Origin: Carcharhinus amblyrhynchos
Taxonomy: Eukaryota
Direction of reading: 5' to 3'
Assembly (NCBI GenBank): GCA_965287045.1
Contig: OZ336882.1
Location: 74,028,001 to 74,092,000, forward strand
Length of the DNA stretch: 64,000 nucleotides
The notes beneath the pieces are model-generated. The model did not search any database, was not told the origin of the DNA, and saw nothing but the letters and a program-made list of their open reading frames with translations. The translations under genes and the position numbers were made by a program. Shown piece by piece: positions 5,275-42,150 of this stretch (the stretch's first letter is position 1; each line of letters starts with the position of its first letter).

Positions 5275-6510
5275 TAGACAGACGGGAACCGGTGGATGTG
5301 GTGTTTGTAGATTTCCAAAAGGCGTTTGATAAGGGGCATCATAAAACGTTGCTACAGAAGGTTACCGTGCACGGAGTTGGGGGTAAGGTGTTAGCGTGGA
5401 TAGAGGATTGGCTGTCTAATAGGAAGTAGAGAGTTGGTATCAATGGGTGCTATTCTGATTGGCGGTTGGTGACTAGTGGAGTGCCGCAGGGATCGGTGCT
5501 GGGGTCTCAGCTATTTACCATTTATATAGATGATCTGGACGAGAGGGCTGAGTGTAGGGTGACGAAATTTGCTGATGACACGAAGATGAGTGGTAAAGCA
5601 AATTGTGTGGAGGGTGTGGAAAGTCTGCAGAGGGATCTGGATAGGCTGAGCAAGTGTTCGAGGACCTGGCAGATGGAGTATAATGTTAGCAAGTGTGAGG
5701 TTATCCACTTTGGCAGAAATAATAGTAGGAGGGATTACTATTTGAAGGGCGAAAAGCTGCAGCGTGTTATGGTGCAGAGCGACCTGGGGGTCCTTGTGCA
5801 TGAGTCACAAAAACCCAGTCTGCAGGTGCAGCAGGTGATCAAGAAGGCAAATGGAATGCTAGCCTTCATAGCGAGGGGGATAGAATATAAAAGCAGGGAG
5901 GTCTTGCTGCAACTGTACAGGGTACTGGTGAGGCCGCAGCTGGAGTAACTGTGTGCAGTTTTGGTCGCCGCACTTGCGCAAGGATATTTTGGCCTTGGAG
6001 GGATTGCAGAGGAGGTTTACTAGGCTGATACCGGAGATGAGGGGGTTGGACTATGAAGAGAGACTGGGTCTGTGCTCGTTCAAGTTTAGAAGGATGAGGG
6101 GGGATCTTATAGAGACGTATAAGATAATGAAAGGGATGGGTAGGGTAGAGGTAGAGAGATTTTTCCTGCTTAGAAAGGATAGCAGGACTAGAGGGCACAG
6201 CCTCAAGATAAGGGGTGGGGGGGGGGGGGGTGGTGGTGCAGTTTAGATCGGAGTTGAAGAGGAACTTCTTCACTCAAAGGGTGGTGAATCTCTGGAATTC
6301 TCTGCCCCTTGATGTGGTGGAGGCTTCCTCACTAAACATATTTAAGTCACGGGTAGATAGGTTTTTGACAGACAAGGGAATTAATGGTTATGGGGAGAAA
6401 GCGGGAAAGTGGAACTGATCCACTTCAGATCAGCCATGATCTTATTGAATGGCGGAGCAGGCTCGAAGTGCTAGATGGCCTACTCCTGCTCCTATTTCTT
6501 ATGTTCTTAT
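5275..6510 (+). mobile_element. Young 5'-truncated CR1 LINE (RT C-terminal half, 3' UTR, tail)
   Basis: VTSGVPQGSVLG, KFADDTK and QFWSPHLRKDI motifs; ends in cttatgttcttat; flanked by GACA-rich simple sequence. Confidence 0.95.
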
Positions 6511-6712
6511 AGGCAGAGGAATGGATGGAGAGACAGATAAACAAAAAGGCAGACAGACAGATAGACAAACTGGCATACAGGCAGGCAGACTGCCAGACAG
6601 TCAGGTTGACAGATACACAGACATATAAATAGATAGATAACCGGACCGACGGACGGAGGGACAGGCGAGTGATGGATGGATAGATGGATGACAGACAGAG
6701 AGACAGACAGAA
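6511..6712. repeat. Degenerate (GACA/GATA/GATG)n purine-rich simple repeat
   Basis: Visible tetranucleotide units; similar tracts at 5160-5290 and 55490-55630. Confidence 0.75.
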
Positions 6713-7092
6713 AACCTCCCGTTATTTCCTTCTCATCATCTGCATATCACCAATAGCCATTCTGCTGCGTCACTTTGGTATGCCTGATTCCATCTGCACA
6801 GTTCCTACAAATCACCCAAACTTCTCCCGTGTGTTTATCGATCCGTTTGTTGTTTTGGCTTTTTTTTCACTCATCTTTTTTTTTCTTCAGTCCGTGAATT
6901 GGTTGTTGTTTCTCCTGGGTCATGGACTTATTCTGTATAATTTACCTGCTGCCATTTTGTTTCCCATCCTGCCTCTATTGCCTCCTGGCCCATCATTAAT
7001 AGTGCTTTCAGGTTTCTGCCCTTCCAAATACTTTACTTCCTGTTCTCTGAAGGCCAACTATTGCAGCATAACGCTATGTCAGTGAACTGCTT

Positions 7093-7988
7093 TCATTGTT
7101 TCGTTTTGCTAATTAATTTAATAATTGATGTAGCAGGATATTTCACTGCTTCCTTTAACTGCTCTCTGAATTTTGACTGAGTTGCTACATAAATAAATGT
7201 GTTTGTGCAGCAACTTAAATTACGCAGCATATATGCAATGTTTTCAAATATATAAAATGAACGATCATCTAAGCTATTTGGAACATTAAAGAAATATAAC
7301 ATGTACACCAACCACAGAAATATAAAGCTGCCGGATATGGTAAATAGTAAAACTATAGATTTCCTTCTATTCTCCATCTCTGGATCGTTGCAATGATCTG
7401 TCTTTTTCTGACCCCTCAATCCCTTGCGGACTCGACTGGCCACTAAAATATGTCTGACTGTCAGAGCGTTGAGCAACAGAATTAACCCGAATGGTATCAA
7501 AGGGGTTAAAATCTTTTCAAACTTTCTAAATCCAATCCATCTAGGGTCAGTGAAATAGCTTCGCTTATTGGAACAGCGCCATGGTATATTGTCGACAATC
7601 CTTCTAGGTTGAAATCTAAAATAGATGGGGACATTTTTTAAGCAGAAGAAAATACTGGTTGTTCCTAGAACTATGGACGCAGTTTTCTTGGTGCAATATT
7701 TTGATATTAGCCTGTGGCAACAAATGGCAACAAATCTATCAAAAGTGAAAGCGACGGTAAACCAGACAGAACAGTCTGTGGCTGCACGGAGCAGGACATA
7801 GCGAACACTACATACAGGTGTAATTTCGAGGAAATTCAGTGGGAAATAATAATCGTTGATTCGGTTGAGAACGACCTCAGTAATAATGACCAGTAGATCC
7901 GCTATGGCCATTGCCATCAGGTAGTACGTGGTTGAACTGGAAAGGCCGCATTTTCCGTTGGACAGAATGACGATTGCCACTGAGTTAA
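7093..7988 (-). CDS. GPR139-like class A GPCR, gene 1, exon 2 (spliced product 320 aa)
   Basis: 7TM pattern: LMAMAIADLLV (TM2), CSVWFTVAFTFDRFVAIC (TM3, DRF), ENRRKSIVLLF (TM6), CCTNTFIYVATQSKFREQL (TM7/H8). Acceptor tttttgcag|TTAAC at 7988, phase 1; stop at 7093. Confidence 0.93.
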
Positions 7989-8569
7989 CTGCAAAAAAAT
8001 AGGAGGAACATATATCATAAGCCACCAAGAAGCACCTTCCCTCTCTGCACATAGCGTGCATTTTTTTTTGCAGCAGTAACGCATGCATGGGGATTCGGAC
8101 GTTTCCAGATTCCCTTGCAAACTCAAAACACTTCCGCAAACGGAGAACATGATTCGTCTCGGGCCATTCCCTGGATGATGGAGCAGAGCTTTGGTGTTTC
8201 AGTGACTTGCATTCCGAAAAATAATAATGTGAATATTCAAGCATAATCAAAGCACAAGATTAATTTCTACATAGAAGGTTACTAAATTAAGAGACGTTGT
8301 GTTATTTTTGGTGAGACACCCTTTGACTCTTATTTGTGTTCCTATCTTCAGCTGAAATATAAGTTTTTTTTTAGCAGATGTATTATTACGGAAACCACAC
8401 CAAAACTGTGGAGGTGTGGGTGAACTAAAAATAACATGTCTCTGCTATGTGGACACGAGAAGGATAAACATTTACGCAATAGAAGAATTTGAATTTTTCG
8501 AGGGGGGTTGAGATTTTGAATGTGGATACCATATTTGTAACACCGATGAGGCAGTGCAAACCTCAGCTT

Positions 8570-9130
8570 CATCAAAACTAGGTGAAACGATTTATGAGTG
8601 GTGTAAAGGTGCAATTGCTACTACATAGAATCAAAGAGTACTTACAGTAGAGGGGACCTTTCAGCACAGTATATAGGAACTGGCTCTCTGAAAGAACATT
8701 CAACCTATTAACACAAGCATGACCTATCCACGCAACATTACACATTATTGATTTTAGTTTGCATGCCGATTTCATTTCAATGCCTTGAAAGGATATTCCT
8801 CCATTTTTTTTGTGGAAATTCAATCCAGGTTCCATCAACAGTCTAGGTGAAAATAAACTCACATTCTCTTTCAAATGGTGTGTCTATTATGTTGTATCTC
8901 TTCTCTAGTTCTTGATTCTCTCTTGATTGGGAGCAGTTTCTCATTATTTAGTCTATTTGTGGTCCTCAAGATCTTGAATAACCACATCAAGTGGCGCCTC
9001 AGCCATATTTTCTCCACAGAAGATAGACTCATACTCTCCAATCCATCCACATAGCTACAGTTCGTTTTTGCCTGAAATCGGTCTTCTGAATTTCCTCTAT
9101 ACACTTTCCAAAGTCTTCACATCCTTCTCA
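8570..9130 (-). mobile_element. Old degraded CR1 3' region in the gene 1 intron
   Basis: SLSSVEKIWLRRHL..LFKILR..NR.N.EKLLP resembles the CR1 ORF2 C-terminus; atagaatc-type tail near 8625. Confidence 0.6.
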
Positions 9131-10630
9131 AGTATAGTTACATACATACACGGAGTTTATTTAAAATGTCTATGAAATGTTAGAAATGTTCACAGCGTGA
9201 GTTTTCACTGTGGCGAGGAAAGAATGGAGATTTGACCAGCTGTAATAGAGATAGTCTGAGGCCAAAATAAAGATTGAAGCAAACCAGTTGGGGACAGTTT
9301 CCACGTTTTAAGATCTGAAACGTGAGTATTACATGGTCATTGATATCATGATTTATTTCATAACATTCGTACAGATAACCACGTAAAACACTGCGCCCAG
9401 GGCCTAATGATTATCAGGACCACACTTGGGGAACAAGATCAATCGTTGCAAGACAATGCGGTCATTGGCTTTCCTTAGTATGAGTGAAGCTTCTTCCCAG
9501 ACTGAATTGTGTTGTGCATTTTCAATTGTTTGTCTATAATCCAGTTACTAACACAAACACAAGGTTATTTTAGTTTGATAAAACAAAACTATTTCTTTTC
9601 AGTGCTGAAGTCAGATGCTATATTCCAATTGGTCACCATATTCAGTTTTACTTATGTCAACTCATCGCCTTGGAAATTCGTGTCCCTGATTCCACCCCTC
9701 CCCCCAACACCGCCCCCCCCCCCCCCCCCCCCCCCCCCCGATGTTTGATTAAACAGAAACAATATTGCACTGAATCCAACAAATTATTGTCATGGGTGAG
9801 CAAGAAATAGTTCGTGCTAAGCAATGTGACTGCAAGAAGAATTCAGGAAATTTATTTCCTCCAAATTCGTTGCTTCATTAGAATGCAAATAATTATGTGA
9901 ATTCAATATAATGCAACATTATAAGAAAAAAAATATAGCAGAACAAGCTTATGTGCAAGCGGACAACAAATTTCTGAAGTTAGGTATATAATATGAAACA
10001 GACTAACTGCACTCTGAACCCCTCCATTAAAGATCACAAGGGAACAAATCCAGACAAGCAGGCAAAAGACATGCCTGCTAGGTCTAACAAGGTCCAACAC
10101 ACAAAGGAAACCGGACAGGATGGCACCAACAGAAACTAAATTAAAAGTACACCCTCATATAATCAAATCACCACCACTGACCTAATCAAGTGATATCAGG
10201 AAGGCTCTATAGAAGCTCCTAAGGAGAAGATTAGTATAACTAAGGAAGTCTTCTTGGCCTCAAAAGACTTTCTGAGATCAGCCAAACACCCATTGTTCAG
10301 GAAACTCCGGATATTCTAGACCATTGATAAACCCACCAGACAGAAACGATTGCCAATCTTAAAACATCGATACTGTACTTGAAAATATCGAAAAAGAATG
10401 GTCAGAGTCAAACACTGTAAACAAAACATTAACGTTCGAGTATAACTGTAGTCCATTGCGGCGGGCTTTCAGAGTGCTCTCGGGACAGTGCTGTTTGTAT
10501 GTCCTGATTGCACCTCCGTCGATGTTAAATAAAGCTGTACCGCTGTTGAACATGACTCTGAGTCCGTAGTGGTCGTGTTCGCCCACTCGCGCTAACAAGT
10601 TGCACTACACAATTTATTTTAGCTACTTAC

Positions 10631-29137: not shown

Positions 29138-30599
29138 ACTCCTGCTCCTAGTTCGTGTGTTATTGTACTCTTATTAAGCTAACTCTTAAGAAATTCATGA
29201 TTCCAGATTACTGATTTTTTTTCTGAATGACAATCTATCCTATTCAAAGGAATTAATTCCAATAATTTGGTCACTGACGTAGTTAGACCACTGATATATG
29301 TAATATGATCTATCCTGACTGTCTATCTTTAAACAAAGTTAAACATTAGCGGTCCTCCAAAGGACTTGGCCAACACCCCTATATCGGGCGTGGAAACTTA
29401 AAGGATTGCCAAACATTCTTCTGGCATTTACTCCCTAGTTTATTTTTACAGTTTGGTGTATGTTTCCTTTGGCTTTGAGGTAATACACATTTTCAAAAAT
29501 GCTAATCCAATTAATCTTTCGTCTCTGTTTCGATTTAACATTTACAATATTTTACTCACTCCTATATATCTGCATTACCTCTTTCATAAAACAAAACAGA
29601 CTCAGAACAATCATCATCCACCTCCAGCGCCTCTGTACATAGTCTGCTTTTTAACTTTCTTCAGGGGCCCTACTCTTCCTCCTTTTTCTCTATATTACCT
29701 CGGATGTATTAACACATCATTTTCGGGGTCCCCTTGATTTTGCATGACAATATTCTGCATACTTTGATTTTCTAACGCCCTTTTGGATTTTACACTTCCA
29801 GTTTCTGTGCTCCTCCTGACCACTGGCTCATACTGTCTTGCTGTATTTTTTTTAAAATTATTGCCATGCTTTTTAGGCCCCTGATGATTTTCAATTTCCC
29901 AGTTAACGGTGCCACCAATCTCCCCTCAAAGAAATTATATCCCAATCCGTCCAATTTTTTTCCATCTTTGTGCAGCCCTGCCAACATCTTCTGGAGGATT
30001 AATAACATTAACCAAAGTTTAGTGAGGATGTTTAACTCACAGTCTCAGGGATCACTTTACGGTTATGGTTAGGGAAATATTTAATGGTATAGGGATTAGC
30101 AATATATTTTGATCGCGTCAGATGGAGAGAGGCCCGTGTGGAACATCAGCACCATCTGCAACAGATATTCTGAATCGTCTGTTCCTTCCTCTGCTTCCTC
30201 TCGCTGTCAAAACCGTTTGCATTGTCTTCAGGTAGCACTTTCAAGATTAGAATAACTCAACGTGTAAAAATCAAGTCACCTCATCTCTTCTCTCGTTGTC
30301 ACCTGTGCCAATTATTGCCAAGAGCTTGAGGGTGATGTTGTGATGGACAAATTGTTTTATCAATCTTATATCTTCCCATAACGCTGCAATCATTCTGTAG
30401 CTTGAAGATCGGTGACAGAACGAAGTGATGAGATGATGCGGGAAAATACTCAACACACATTGCATATATTATGTGTTAGTTACGTGGATTATTGCGTTTC
30501 CGGGGATGGGGTTCGCTGGAGTAAAAAAGTCAGTGCAGACTCGATGGACTCCTTCTGCATTGCAGAGATACTGTATTTAACTATTCTTATTTGGTGAAC

Positions 30600-33500
30600 A
30601 CAGGGAATATCAGGTCACAGCTCACTGGACAGGTCATGACTTGGCCTTCTGTAGCTTTCTCTGACCTGCATCTCTGTTTTATTTGACTTGACCAAAATTC
30701 CTACTGTGTTTGATTTCCGTTGTCATTGGTGCCTTTGCAGTTTACCATCCAGCCGTAATCCTTCTTGATGATCCCGGAACGTTAAAAGAATTGGACCACA
30801 AACTATGACCAAGTTCACTGTCACTAACAATTATTAAGATATCAGTCAAACTAACTATTCAGGTATTACCTTTTTATTTCATCTTTATGTGTAATCTTTT
30901 TTCATCTCTGCGACATAATTGCATTTTTAACTGTTACATTCTTTCTTTTACATTTAACGAATTCAATCGTACATAGCATCAAACTAAAGTGCTCAATATT
31001 GTTAACACAGCAACATGTGACATGAAAGTAGTCCATGGTTGAATTTGCCCGTTTGTACATCAACTACAGAAATCATGTTGTTTTTTTCATAGCGTTAATG
31101 TCCCTTTTATCTTTTGTATTGTTTGGACGACTTTGGTAAATGTTCGATGAATATTAAATGACTTCTCTTTAATTTGTTTTAGTTTCCTTGGTAAAAGATT
31201 AAAAGTAGCGTCATTTTACTTTGCAAAGTAGTTAGCAACGCCTCTTTCAATTCATCTATAACACTGAAATATATTTCATATTTTATGTATATCAGTTAAA
31301 TCTGTATGTTTATTCTAGCTAGTACTTGATACTTAAAACAAAACGTGTTAATATTATATATCGATGTGCCATATTGATAAACATTCAGTGAGGCAGTAAC
31401 ACACATTTCCCATGACCCTTATAAGCTATACATGTAATGATCATATCAAGGCTTATAGCTTCTCTTGAACTATCGAAATCCACAACCATCTTAAAACCAA
31501 ACAAATAATGTTCCTTAGAATATGTTCGGCAAACATATATAATTGTATTATTTGTTTGTTGATATTTATTCAGATCAAACCTTCTCATCTACCCGTCTTC
31601 TCAACTGCATTAATGAAGACGTCATAAAATCCTCTCCACGTGGCATTTTCACGAATTCTTATAGTCCTTACTTCAGAAACTTTTGATTCAACTTCATCCA
31701 TTGGAATAGGTTGAACTCCCAATATTATTCCTTAGAACTGTCCTTGAGTGTCTCCACAATTGGTCTCAGAACAAACCCGAGTCAGCTGCCGAAATTCACA
31801 ACTTGCTATATTCGGACATCACTGTCCACCCTTCAAATGCTCGAATTGTTCATTGCTAATCATTGCTAATGGATCCTTTCACTGGGTAACTTATTGAAGA
31901 TACTTACAAAGATTTTCGGTCATCTGCAAACCATAAATTCTATTCTGCTGTTAACCATCATCTTACTTCCCCTTTAATAATTTGATTTATGGATCTAGCA
32001 TGACCTTCAACTCAGGTAATCATACATCTATCAGCTTGTTTTATCAGCTCCTCCTTAACTTACAGTTGGTCAATAGCATTTGCGTTGGTTGAATTTGTTT
32101 CATCTTTTTGCGTTAATTGCGAAATTAATTAATCAAATTGACTGGATCGAGTGCACAAATAATCGATATTATTGATTGATCAGAGAAAACCATTTTCAAA
32201 ATGTCCCGCACTCTGTGGAGTAAAACATAGCCCCACAACCACCTCCCCCCCCCCTCCCCCGCCTTTCAAAGGCAGTGTGTTGATCATCAAAGCAAGAAGA
32301 ACTCCATTTTCACTAGCACTGTGCCAGAAGCAAGATTGTACCAGCTATTATGAACGGATCATAATCAGTTCCCTATTTCGAACGACTTTACTTCCAGAAA
32401 TGGTTGCTCTCCAATTTTTACTCCTCTATGGAGACATTAACCATTAGATTTTGAACTTCTCTGATGACAAGATGCCCCGAGAAGACCAAGCCGTAGAAAA
32501 TTAAATCTTAGAAGGTTGGTGAACACCATAGCGGCAGCACGTGTAAACAAACCCTTGTCATAACCTGCAGACCTCCGCACCTGGAGACAAGCCATACTTC
32601 CAACCTACTTTAAACAATAAAATATGAAAGTCAGCAAGTTATTATCAGCAATTCAAGTATTAATGGGATTCAGTTATTTACCTGCAACATGGAAAATATT
32701 GTGGGGCGACAATAACTTCCCGGCACAGTGAAAGTATAGATTCAGCGACTAAATAACATTTCATCTATATGTGATGAAAAATGCGATCGATACAAAACCA
32801 GGTACGATCAAATTAATACTTGCGCATCCAAAACAATTTAATCCTGAGCGTTCTAGCGAACTGGTATCCTCTCATCATTTTCATTCAACGATTTCCTCGA
32901 CAAATTGCTTAATGTCTTGCTGAATTGTATTACTTTCTATCACACGTTCCTTGTTCTCAACCTCTGCACTCGCTACACATATTGTCTCACTATTTGTTTC
33001 CTCATTCTCACCTGAGTTTCTGACTAACTAATTGTTCATCTCGTACTCAACCTGACTTTGCTAAATGCTGTGGCCAGTTGGACCAGGTATCTGACAAACT
33101 TTCCATCCAACTGTCTGTTGGACTACCTCCACACATATCTGTAAAGCTGAGGTTAATGTAGAACTTGATGAGGAAGAGCTAGCAAAAGAGGAGTAGAATA
33201 AGCATATGTAGCATATACTTCCAAAATAACATGAGGTTGATGACTACAATGAACACAATATGCTTTGTTTTGATTTACATGTTCTGCCCCAGTCACTTCA
33301 GAAACATTAGAAGCTCAAACATATGTGCACTTACTTTATCTATAATAGTGAGAGGTCCAGATGACCTCGGAGTTAAGAACATACCGGGTTAACAAATTTG
33401 CAGCATGATCTGTTGTCCCACCATATACTGTATAGCATTCATTTTTCCAGCGAAATAAGCCTTACTTTTAATGCTTGTTTTGTACTATGTTAACAGCGCT

Positions 33501-34545
33501 TGAACATTGTCAAACAATTGCTATAATGTTTCTTGTAACTGAGGGCAATAATTTCAATTTCAGAAAATTTAAATCATAAAAAAAAATCAGTTTTAGACAT
33601 GGGACGTCCAGTCATCAAGATATGTGGATTAAATCCTGCTGGCCTTGAAATTACACTTGTCACTGTCATAACACAAGGGATAATACTACGTTCCATGAGA
33701 AATTGTTTTCCTGTACATGTTTGTGAAGCAGTGATTTTAAATTATAATTCAATCATTTCAACTATTCCACATGATCGAGGACGATAAACAACGCAATATT
33801 TCAGAGTGATCCAAATTCTTCATGACTTGAGCGGTAAAGTAAGTACTTTAATCTGATTCGATACTTAGTGGAAGCCCCAACCTGACATACACTTGTTGAA
33901 CCAAGATGTATGCTGCCACTTCCGCTGACTTACTGTCGGTCAGAAATGCTTCAGCCTATTTGCTGGAAGTGCCAATTATGACTAGTATATATTAATATCC
34001 TCCCTGAGATGGCTGTAAAGGACCATCATAACTACCTATAAATTAGTAGACTGTCCTTCAACTAGTGTGTCTCTAACTCCCCCTTACTTGCATACCTATC
34101 AGGTTTATTTTGAGCATATACTAAACATTTTTCTGCATTATGCTTTACATGCTTTTCCACATTTGACGATAACATATCCGTTGATTTGTCTACCAGTTGT
34201 TTCTGTTCCCCGATGGCCTTAAACATCACGAAACTGGTGAATGATTTGATACCATCTCGGATTAGCAGCACATACCATCCATTTTTACGAACAATTGCAT
34301 CCTGGAGTTGTAACTTATCTTTCCATTGATCATACGAAGCAGGATATACTCGGTTCTGTAACTGTTTAAAGTCATCATCAGGACGCTGCGGCTATTTGAG
34401 ATCTTCCATTTTAACCTGACCAAAACGAACAACATCTATCTGTTCACCCATTGGGGACTGCCATGCTTCCCCCTCTTGAGCACCCTGTTTTGCTGACGGT
34501 GCTTTTGTGAAGGGGTATTCCTGACACTTGTCCTGATTTTTGCCT
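30600..34545 (-). mobile_element. Degraded endogenous retrovirus-like provirus: RNase H end, integrase, GPY/F-like tail, env-like region, possible PPT and 3' LTR
   Basis: Minus-strand translation across stops and frameshifts: AKQGAQEGEAW (~34470-34495); DV*GHRGTETT...KCLVYAQN (zinc finger); GPLQPSQGGY*YILVII..SSK*AEAF; LGLPLSIESD*STYFT (~33835-33880); YRPRSCGIVE (~33757-33787); GFNPHILMTGRPM (~33598-33635); YMVGQQIML...LTPRSSGPLTIIDKVS...HVNQ.KAY. Env-like text lies at about 30900-32150. Confidence 0.8.
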
Positions 34546-39229: not shown

Positions 39230-40930
39230 TTGGAAATGGAATGAAGGGAAGGGAAGGGAAGAGGGATGTTGAGAAAACAAAAGTCTGGGACCCAACTTAA
39301 AAGGCAATTCGTAAGTCTCCCTTTAGCATACAAATTAGCAAGAGGAGTATGGGCGAATTGGGACTAAACAACAAATGTACACAGGGAGGCTGGGGGAATG
39401 GCAGAGTTGGGAAAGTAATAATTTGCAGCTCTCTTCATCAAGTAGGTAGATTCTAACGTAATCATTATGATATAACAGGAAGTCTTTTCCCTGGAAGGCT
39501 TCATATGGAACAGGCATGGAAACTTAATTTTAATAAAGCACTCGGACGAGATGAGATCCACATGGACACATTGAAGGCAGTGAGGTGGGAAGATGCAGGG
39601 ATACTAGGCATATTCATTCATTCTTTTGAAGTTTTGAGGAGGACTAGTAAAATGCACATGTTACGCCTCCGTGCAAAAAAAAAGTAGAAATTGCAAGACA
39701 GCCAGTTTAACTTCAGCAGTCTGGGATATTCGGGATAGAATTTTAGCTGCACGGTTAAAAAAAAGTGGGTTTATTAAGACAAGGCTGTATGCATTTTATA
39801 AGGGAGAAGTGGTTAAGTAACTTTTTTTCGAGAAGCATCACGATAAGTTTGCATACATTGATTTTATAAAGCATTATAGTGTTTCACAACAGACTTGCAA
39901 TAAAAGTAAAAGTTAATGAAAAAAAAAGACAGTTGCAAGGTGGGCACAACATTCAATGAGTAATATGAAATGACGAACAGAGATTAACTGACATTTTTCG
40001 CACTGTAGGAAGGTTTGTAGTGGCGTTCCTCAGTGGCCTATTTTTCGGAACTTTTCATGGAATATATTAATGAATCTATAGATCTTGGTGCACACTCAGG
40101 ACCATTTCGGTATTTGCAGATTACACAAAACTTGGAGCATTCTAAACTGTGACGAACAAAGTCTAGAACATCAAAAAGATAGAGACAGGTGGGTGGAGGG
40201 GCACAAAGCGTGAAGCATGCATTCAATCCAGATAATTGTGACTTGATTAATTTTAGTAAGAAGAATAAGAAGAGATAATAGACAAAGAAGATTACAACTC
40301 AAAAGATGGTGCAGGCAAAGGGGGACCTCGGTCTGTACGTACAGAAGTCGTTAGCATTCGCAGGGCATGTGGAAAGAACAATAAAGCATCCAAAATTTAG
40401 ATCTTGATTAATCGCTGCGTAGAATACAGGGACAAGAAGGTGATGCTAAAACTTTTCTGGAAATTATTTTAATTTCATTTGGCGTATCGCGTACTGTTCT
40501 GGGTGTCACACATTAGGAAGGTTGCAGATGCATTGGACAGTGTACAGAGGAGATGAACAGGTATGGTCACAGGAATGAAAGGTTTCAGTTCTGATGAATG
40601 ACACATGAGACTGGGACTTCAGGGAAGAAAACACAGAAGAGATTTCATAGAGAAATTTTACAAATCATGAGCGTGTTGGACAGAGTACATCGGGGCAAAT
40701 TGTTTCGACTCGTAAAATGATCACAAACGAGAGGGCATAGAAGAAGCAAATGTGAAGTGAGAAAAACATCGTTTTCACACGACATGTTGTTCGGGGCGAG
40801 AATGCACTGCCCGGAAGTGCAGTGGAGGCTTGCTCAATCAGGCCACACAAGAAGCGATTACATGGCTACTTGAGCGGGAATATTGGACAAGAATACGGGG
40901 AAAAGCCTGAAGAATATTACGAAGTCGCAA
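39230..40930 (+). mobile_element. Old degraded CR1 ORF2 to 3' end
   Basis: GVPQW, FADYTK, FWVSHIRKVADALDSVQRR-like remnants and RTRGH. Confidence 0.65.
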
Positions 40931-42150
40931 CGGTCAATCATTGAATCAGCATAGATGCACTGGGATAAACGGCCTTATTCTGCATGCAAAACAAACACAC
41001 ACACAACAACTGTGGTTCTGTTATTCCACTCTGCTCTACATGCGACTCCCCAATTCATTTCTTACCAAACAAAAATCGTTCTTGAACCTCGTTCTGAATC
41101 TCGTAAAACGTTATTATGGAGTCGAAGATTTCACTCTGTTCTTCAGCAGGTTTTGCAACAGTTTCTGTTCTTGGCGATTCCATTCCCACGCCACCCTCCA
41201 GACCAAGGGAAATAATAATTATTAACAATTAGGAACAAATCTTGGTGACATTTTACATGGAACGGGAGTGTATCTGTATCATTTTTTTAAAAATTACATC
41301 AACATTCATTTATGAAATTCTATCTATCCCAGATGCACAGGGTCTCCGGCATCAACTCTGCTATATCGTCGAAGAATTCCAGTAGATTTGCCAGACATGA
41401 AATGTGTTTCATAATCCATGCTGACTGTTCGGTCCTGCCACTGCTTTCCGAGTGCTTTGCTGTAAAATCTTTTGGAAATAATTGTCTATTGTTTCTTAAT
41501 TCCGACATGATAATGTCTATAATTCCCTGTTTTCTCTCTACCTTCATGCTTAAACAATACAAATACCTTAGCTACCCTCCACTCTTTACAAAATGTAGAA
41601 TCCTGGAAGGTGACCAACAATACTTCCACTTTTTATCTGAACATTCTGTGATGTAGATTATCAGACATTGGGTACTTAGTAGCCTTCAATCCCATCAGTT
41701 GCCCCAACATAATTTCGCTATTAATATTGACCTATTCGAGCCCCTCCCTCACACCAAACTTTATGTTCCCCAATATTTCTGGTATCTTATTGCTATGCTT
41801 CTTTGTGAAGTCAGAAAAAAAAGTTTGTATTCAGTTGGTCAGCACTTTTTTCCCCAAATTATTAATGTTTCTTTTTCTAACTGGAAGGGACCTCCATTTT
41901 TCTCCATCAAACTTCTTTTTTGTTTCTCTCGCAAACCGATAAAAATGTTGTGAAATCAGTTATTGCATTCTCTGCAAGTATACTCTTGTATTCTATTTCC
42001 CTTCTTAATCAATCCCTTTGACTGCTATTGAATTGTAAACTGTTTCCATTGTCCACCGTTCTGTTCTTCTTCTTGGCCAATGTATAGGCCTGTCCCTTGT
42101 ATATAAATGTGTCGCTAACTTCCCTCATAATCCAAGGTTTGGTCACCATT
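40775..42150. repeat. Inverted segmental duplication, copy B (partner 1-1412)
   Basis: Reverse complement of 1-1412, including the non-TE spacer (about 850-1250) and its junctions. Confidence 0.95.

Follow-up and report, generated by a model that had tools for sequence, protein, structure and literature searches.

The 3' half of a long-dead provirus, probably of a class III-type lineage, in the shark Carcharhinus amblyrhynchos

In a 64,000-nucleotide stretch of the Carcharhinus amblyrhynchos genome (contig OZ336882.1; hereafter the window), the minus strand from 34493 to 30583 carries the 3' half of a long-dead, half-deleted provirus from an endogenous retrovirus (ERV) lineage that is frequent in this genome. 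The ancient and non-functional provirus most probably (probability about 0.8) belongs to a class III-type lineage, related in a broad sense to SnRV, which has invaded the shark genome repeatedly. SnRV-related and clade III ERVs have already been reported from cartilaginous fish, and the locus adds another such shark retrovirus, one with an apparently F-like Env. As one of dozens of dead copies, the locus is of little importance by itself.

Extent and content of the remnant

Read on the minus strand, the locus consists of the tail of RNase H, a broken integrase, an internally deleted env, a polypurine tract (PPT) and an LTR remnant. The peptides quoted in the initial annotation all lie on this strand in the order given there, and collinear tblastn matches to a related element of the same genome (C1 112.669-112.680 Mb; the C1 element), which was used as the map for the window, place that arrangement far beyond chance. 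Five collinear pieces between 34493 and 33216 match residues 798 to 1236 of the C1 Pol at 35-56% identity (combined E about 1e-68). Another five between 32116 and 30982 match residues 301 to 689 of the C1 Env at 39-43% identity (combined E about 1e-42), which bears out the env remnant with heptads, Cys region and anchor that had been described. Stops within the matched pieces number 8 in Pol and 10 in Env.

The similarity to Pol begins at 34493, within the final helix of a retroviral-type RNase H (34470-34493). The RNase H end that had been proposed is therefore present, with only the final 8 or so residues in the window. The provirus is absent upstream of 34493, and none of the 53 other DNA matches to the locus starts before query position 53. 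In a relaxed search, the 64-kb window yielded nothing of gag, protease, RT or the RNase H body better than E 1.2. The integrase pseudogene (33216-34469) is spread over five frame pieces and comprises a linker, a decayed zinc domain, the core and an SH3-like C-terminal domain. Its core piece has a match to Pfam rve (E 2.4e-4) that is below the family cut-off, and the other five peptide pieces of the window have no useful Pfam match. Of the proposed D/SD/E core, the SD and E are kept and the first catalytic Asp is lost; the zinc finger is degenerate, as had been stated, with most zinc ligands gone.

The pol tail and the spacer between pol and env (32300-33215) are conserved at the DNA level, with 65-73% identity to copies on C8 and C21. 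A remnant of the env start (32190-32300) is recognized by its DNA match to the env start of the C8 copy. After it, about 190 codons have been deleted from env, a size inferred from the C8 DNA map and from the point, Env residue 301, at which protein similarity sets in. The missing stretch covers the head and, in the C1 relative, carries an RxKR cleavage site and the fusion peptide, such that the first heptad of the window's env is the segment directly after the missing fusion peptide. The env pseudogene proper (30982-32160, in five frame pieces) includes the first heptad, a Cys-rich core, the second heptad and the transmembrane anchor. A profile of the Env family matches the window at env with an iE of 1.4e-14, the best value elsewhere in the window being 0.58. 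The NAT and NNT sequons to which attention had been drawn are absent from the C1 relative and, not being kept there, carry no weight.

The decayed PPT suggested at 30760-30777 was substantiated, since it aligns with the purine tracts of copies on C21 and C22 and shares an identical GGATCAA-purine-run motif with the tract situated before the TG of the C1 element's LTR. Beyond it lies what is left of the 3' LTR, namely its 5' part on the U3 side (30583-30759), which matches both ends of a copy at C22 9.88 Mb and the upstream end of a copy on C13, and has at least 40 other matches in the genome at 70-82% identity. The proposed search for paired LTRs was thus successful in the C22 copy and not in the window, where neither a 5' LTR nor a second LTR copy was found within the 64 kb; no tRNA gene was found there either. 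After insertion, the 5' half and part of env would have been lost from the window copy, and neutral decay would have followed. No present function is evident, and nothing suggests co-option. Elsewhere in the window, positions 1-1363 and 40827-42150 form long inverted repeats of 90-95% identity about 40 kb apart, which probably represent a single young interspersed repeat present twice.

Copies and relatives in sharks

A DNA search of the genome (2.92 Gb, in which the window lies on contig C13) with 30600-34545 returned 54 matches including the locus itself, at 65-85% identity (40 of 118 candidates scored). In 11 copy regions, the order of integrase then env recurs wherever env is present. Ten of these regions keep upstream gag, protease, RT or RNase H and the eleventh keeps gag alone; all 11 copies are broken. 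Protein searches with sequences taken from these copies led to a related family of this genome whose frames are long and open (Pol of 1126-1424 aa, Env of 675-734 aa). Long Pol and Env frames like those of C1 also occur on C6, C41, C45 and C189.

The C1 element has a gag of 631 aa with a CCHC knuckle, an in-frame stop, a Pol of 1424 aa and then env. Its Pol is arranged as protease, RT, tether, RNase H and an integrase with an SH3-like end, where the tether and RNase H correspond to Pfam RT_RNaseH_2 (E 7.6e-25) and RNase_H (E 7.8e-18). This pair of domains identifies the related family as a retrovirus and not Gypsy. The element is flanked by a 4-bp target duplication and has a primer site matching the host tRNA-Asn and LTRs of 785 nt with TG...CA ends that are 100% identical, which suggests a very recent insertion of the C1 element in the genome. 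Based on general retrovirology, Pol would be made by readthrough of the stop, reverse transcription would be primed by tRNA-Asn and the plus strand by the PPT, insertion would be carried out by the integrase, and entry would likely involve a furin-cleaved class I fusion protein of F-like type. Past the integrase, residues 1235-1424 of the C1 Pol form a tail of about 190 low-complexity residues that differs in a copy on C14. No conserved accessory ORF was seen between pol and env in four copies.

Collinear gag-pol-env relatives, the dual RNase H and the PPT with its LTR remnant uphold the initial view of an old env-bearing ERV in a cartilaginous fish. The LTRs of one sister copy are 79% identical over 312 columns. 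A mammalian rate converts this into about 55 My, and the slower rate that Han (2015) assumed for sharks yields an age that is impossible. A cluster of at least six copies from the window's own family occupies 0.6 Mb of C22 (9.85-10.47 Mb), with 74-91% protein identity, a likeness close enough to suggest segmental duplication of host DNA; a fragment of an Ig-domain host gene lies near one of them. Among other sharks, named homologues include a Scyliorhinus Env piece (79%) and a Mustelus RT piece (71%), and Env-like proteins are also known from Mustelus, Heterodontus, Chiloscyllium and Pristiophorus. A homolog search with the integrase piece yielded nothing among 257 candidates. Annotated proteins of Mustelus, Heterodontus and Pristiophorus share 50-69% mutual identity over the N-terminal half of Env, and these could represent a co-opted env gene or another ERV family.

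Env and F-like fusion proteins

The C1 Env begins with a signal-like segment and also shows an RSKR site, a hydrophobic region, heptads, an anchor and a core rich in Cys. It is likely that the Env of this family resembles the fusion (F) proteins of measles-type viruses, and sequence methods support the proposed relation to class I fusion proteins of the F type. Among 1.84 billion representatives searched, 58 Env homologues were retrieved, and eight of the ten that were looked up bear shark, frog or cyprinid names. The best PDB match of a profile built from 30 natural Env sequences is foamy Env 8rm1 (E 0.0045). In the ESM Atlas, clusters of F0 fusion glycoproteins are the top match for Env (score 0.93, 201 of 256 features shared), on a scale where 4-10 of 100 shuffled proteins reach 0.9 and which is uncalibrated for protein parts. 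None of the Env sequences examined matches Pfam PF00523 directly, and the C1 Env as a single sequence found nothing in the PDB at E 10 and nothing informative in Pfam. The head of the C1 Env also lacks a Pfam match. Two Env homologues have some connection with Ig domains: residues 25-96 at the N-terminus of P0172 match a V-set Ig domain weakly (E 0.045), and P0140 bears an Ig-like label in UniRef.

When applied to viral genomes, the Env profile scored 38.9 bits with the Env of a 12,708-nt genome (WDSV, we presume from the genome length), 28.6 with a lokiretrovirus Env piece, 22.2 with foamy Env and 18.5 with SnRV. Background was at most 2.5 bits for 100 shuffles of each sequence and at most 1.2 for shuffles of the loki piece. 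Across 17 genomes, foamy Env scores lie between -0.4 and 22.2 bits, and no frame of gamma or beta type exceeds 5.8 bits, which is near background. Profile comparison with hhalign gave P 96.8 for the WDSV-size Env, P 94.6 (E 7e-8) for SnRV and P 46.6 (E 2e-4; 17% identity over 166 columns) for the loki piece. The matches span several hundred columns, at 5962-9648 of the WDSV-size genome and 6131-9502 of SnRV. As a single sequence, the C1 Env reaches E 0.04-0.06 against the SnRV, WDSV-size and loki Envs, which is not significant; the link comes via the profile because its frog and unnamed members are closer to those Envs.

Since the profile also finds foamy, snakehead and WDSV-size Envs, an F-like Env is not diagnostic of loki elements. 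The profile links the Envs of four deep retroviral lineages by sequence, which means that structure prediction could test what kind of Env is ancestral among retroviruses. A core common to foamy Env and F has been described (PMC11468914), and the WDSV Env has been characterized as distinct from the gamma type (PMC9967133). A search of the openly licensed literature found no paper calling the SnRV or WDSV Env F-like. A tentative suggestion, for which the odds are below even, is that the lineage of sharks, frogs and coelacanth is a distinct basal branch whose Env links an F-like family including those of loki, foamy, snakehead and walleye-type epsilon retroviruses, F-like being the ancestral retroviral Env. 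If so, gamma- and beta-type Envs would be later replacements, in keeping with scenarios 1 and 3 of Wang and Han (PMC7947760).

Phylogenetic placement and known systems

Because the window has no RT, its placement rests on the integrase and on the RTs of sister copies. Trees were inferred under LG+G4 without a mixture model from 47 integrase rows, 47 RT rows and, for a second RT tree, 49 rows. The rows were picked so as to remove near-duplicates from pools of 84 rows for integrase, 120 for RT and 43 RTs of viruses; the sets are without ERV-L, ERV-S and fish endogenous foamy references, and that of the integrase is without CGIN1. Rows of loki and SnRV were labelled by RT motifs matched to a published alignment, those of gamma, epsilon and Gypsy by source names together with motifs, and those of foamy and beta by search pattern.

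In the integrase tree, the window row, two sister copies and the C1 family form one group with a support of 100/100. Lokiretroviruses are monophyletic without the shark rows (100/100), and Gypsy stands apart (100/99) with the window row outside it, not within the ordinary Gypsy clades. The RT trees, which include three old sister copies, unite the shark rows at 100/99-100, with the limit that RTs of old copies were excised with the C1 Pol as guide and may be pulled towards C1. The shark rows fall inside the non-loki retroviruses at 100/99 in the 47-row RT tree and 100/97 in the 49-row RT tree, and the loki rows are again monophyletic without them (100/100 and 98/99, respectively), as they are in a first RT tree from a quick search. 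An element of the Gypsy type bearing an env, like that of errantiviruses, is refuted by the dual RNase H of the related family and by the splitting off of the Gypsy rows at 100/99-100 in RT and integrase trees, even though Ty3 is the best PDB match of the Pol piece (E 1.4e-52) and F-type Envs are described as widespread among errantiviruses (10.1101/2023.10.26.564294).

Several comparisons point to SnRV and its relatives. Among 43 virus loci with an RT match, the best RT identity is to a 10,688-nt genome of SnRV type (46%, versus 38-40% for foamy), and RNase H scores are 45 bits for SnRV, 37 for the best foamy virus and 30 for the best lokiretrovirus. In the whole PDB, the RNase H is matched best by 2lsn (E 1.3e-9), which we take to be a foamy RNase H. 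In the best 49-row RT tree SnRV is sister to the shark clade at a support of just 43/24, and in the 47-row tree it lies with other retroviruses instead (85/82).

The low support for a sister relation with SnRV leaves some room for a separate, unnamed basal retrovirus lineage of sharks, frogs and coelacanth that is neither loki, foamy nor the SnRV clade proper. Within the protein collection, frogs and coelacanth supply the closest Pols, with 54-57% identity over RT and tether compared with 33-40% for loki Pols, and in the 49-row RT tree the shark rows and these sequences form one clade (87/96) in a basal polytomy. Such a lineage nevertheless appears fairly improbable as something apart. CmiERV lineage I of the elephant shark has been reported to cluster with SnRV (PMC4422223; Han 2015), and the shark sequences probably fall inside such SnRV-clustering ERVs or the broad clade Huo, which is described from all major vertebrate lineages (PMC6001957; Xu 2018), neither of which is represented in the present trees. 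In addition, 2843 clade III RT loci are given for six chondrichthyan genomes, where they form the majority (PMC11089739).

The initial annotation raised the possibility of a loki-like or spuma-related element, and a lokiretrovirus at this locus would be the first in cartilaginous fish. This reading is largely refuted and very improbable. In its favor are the match of the Env profile to the loki Env piece, an integrase identity of 36-39% to lokiretroviruses versus 29% to SnRV, and an AU test in which a clade of shark, frog and coelacanth rows placed with loki is not rejected (p 0.075). The Env match is, however, common to foamy, SnRV and WDSV-size genomes. The AU test rejects a grouping of shark with loki in both the 47-row (p 0.004) and 49-row (p 0.019) RT trees, as well as shark with foamy in the latter (p 0.013), so that neither assignment is supported. 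The RT motifs of the shark family, LPQGFHNSP and VQYVDD, differ from CPFGYxNSP and LIYVDD of lokiretroviruses. When the genome was queried with a loki RT, the best match was the related shark family (40%), and nothing exceeded 44% identity among the 100 matches listed (150 of 2064 candidates scored). Together with the trees and the AU tests, this result means that no extension of the loki host range to cartilaginous fish is shown. Lokiretroviruses are defined by RT, their Env is described as related to PF00523 (PMC7947760), and Fig. S1 of the supplement to that paper gives loki in 0 of 6 chondrichthyan genomes. The combination of an F-like env and a retroviral RNase H is not diagnostic of lokiretroviruses, and loki calls in shark genomes therefore need an RT tree.

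The class III-type, SnRV-related reading thus remains preferred, and the likeness to known systems is uneven. Lokiretroviruses share with the shark family the tether and RNase H and the LTR-gag-pol-env layout, and their Env seems similar in its predicted cleavage site, fusion peptide, heptads, anchor and relation to F; the shark RT and integrase nevertheless lie outside the loki clade, and lokiretroviruses score lowest for RNase H. Foamy viruses provide the best PDB match for the Env profile, whereas the shark RT is outside their clade. Foamy Gag is not known to carry a CCHC zinc knuckle. The Gag of the shark family possesses one, and, unlike in foamy viruses, the shark Pol is in frame after gag. 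The frog and coelacanth ERV Pols, which are nearest over RT and tether, are database predictions ('protein NYNRIN-like') that belong to no named family. SnRV is the best RT and RNase H match among the exogenous viruses tested and resembles the shark family in its gag-stop-pol layout (625/1398 aa versus 631/1424 aa) and in a homologous Env core, although its integrase is distant and its Env ORF exceeds 1120 aa compared with about 720 aa in the shark family. The SnRV clade (described, with the genome length of SnRV, in PMC12193657) and clade Huo include cartilaginous fish among their hosts, as does the shark family; further related literature is found in PMC10435555, PMC8278194, PMC10536682, PMC12583693, PMC12690878 and 10.1101/2021.11.23.469661.
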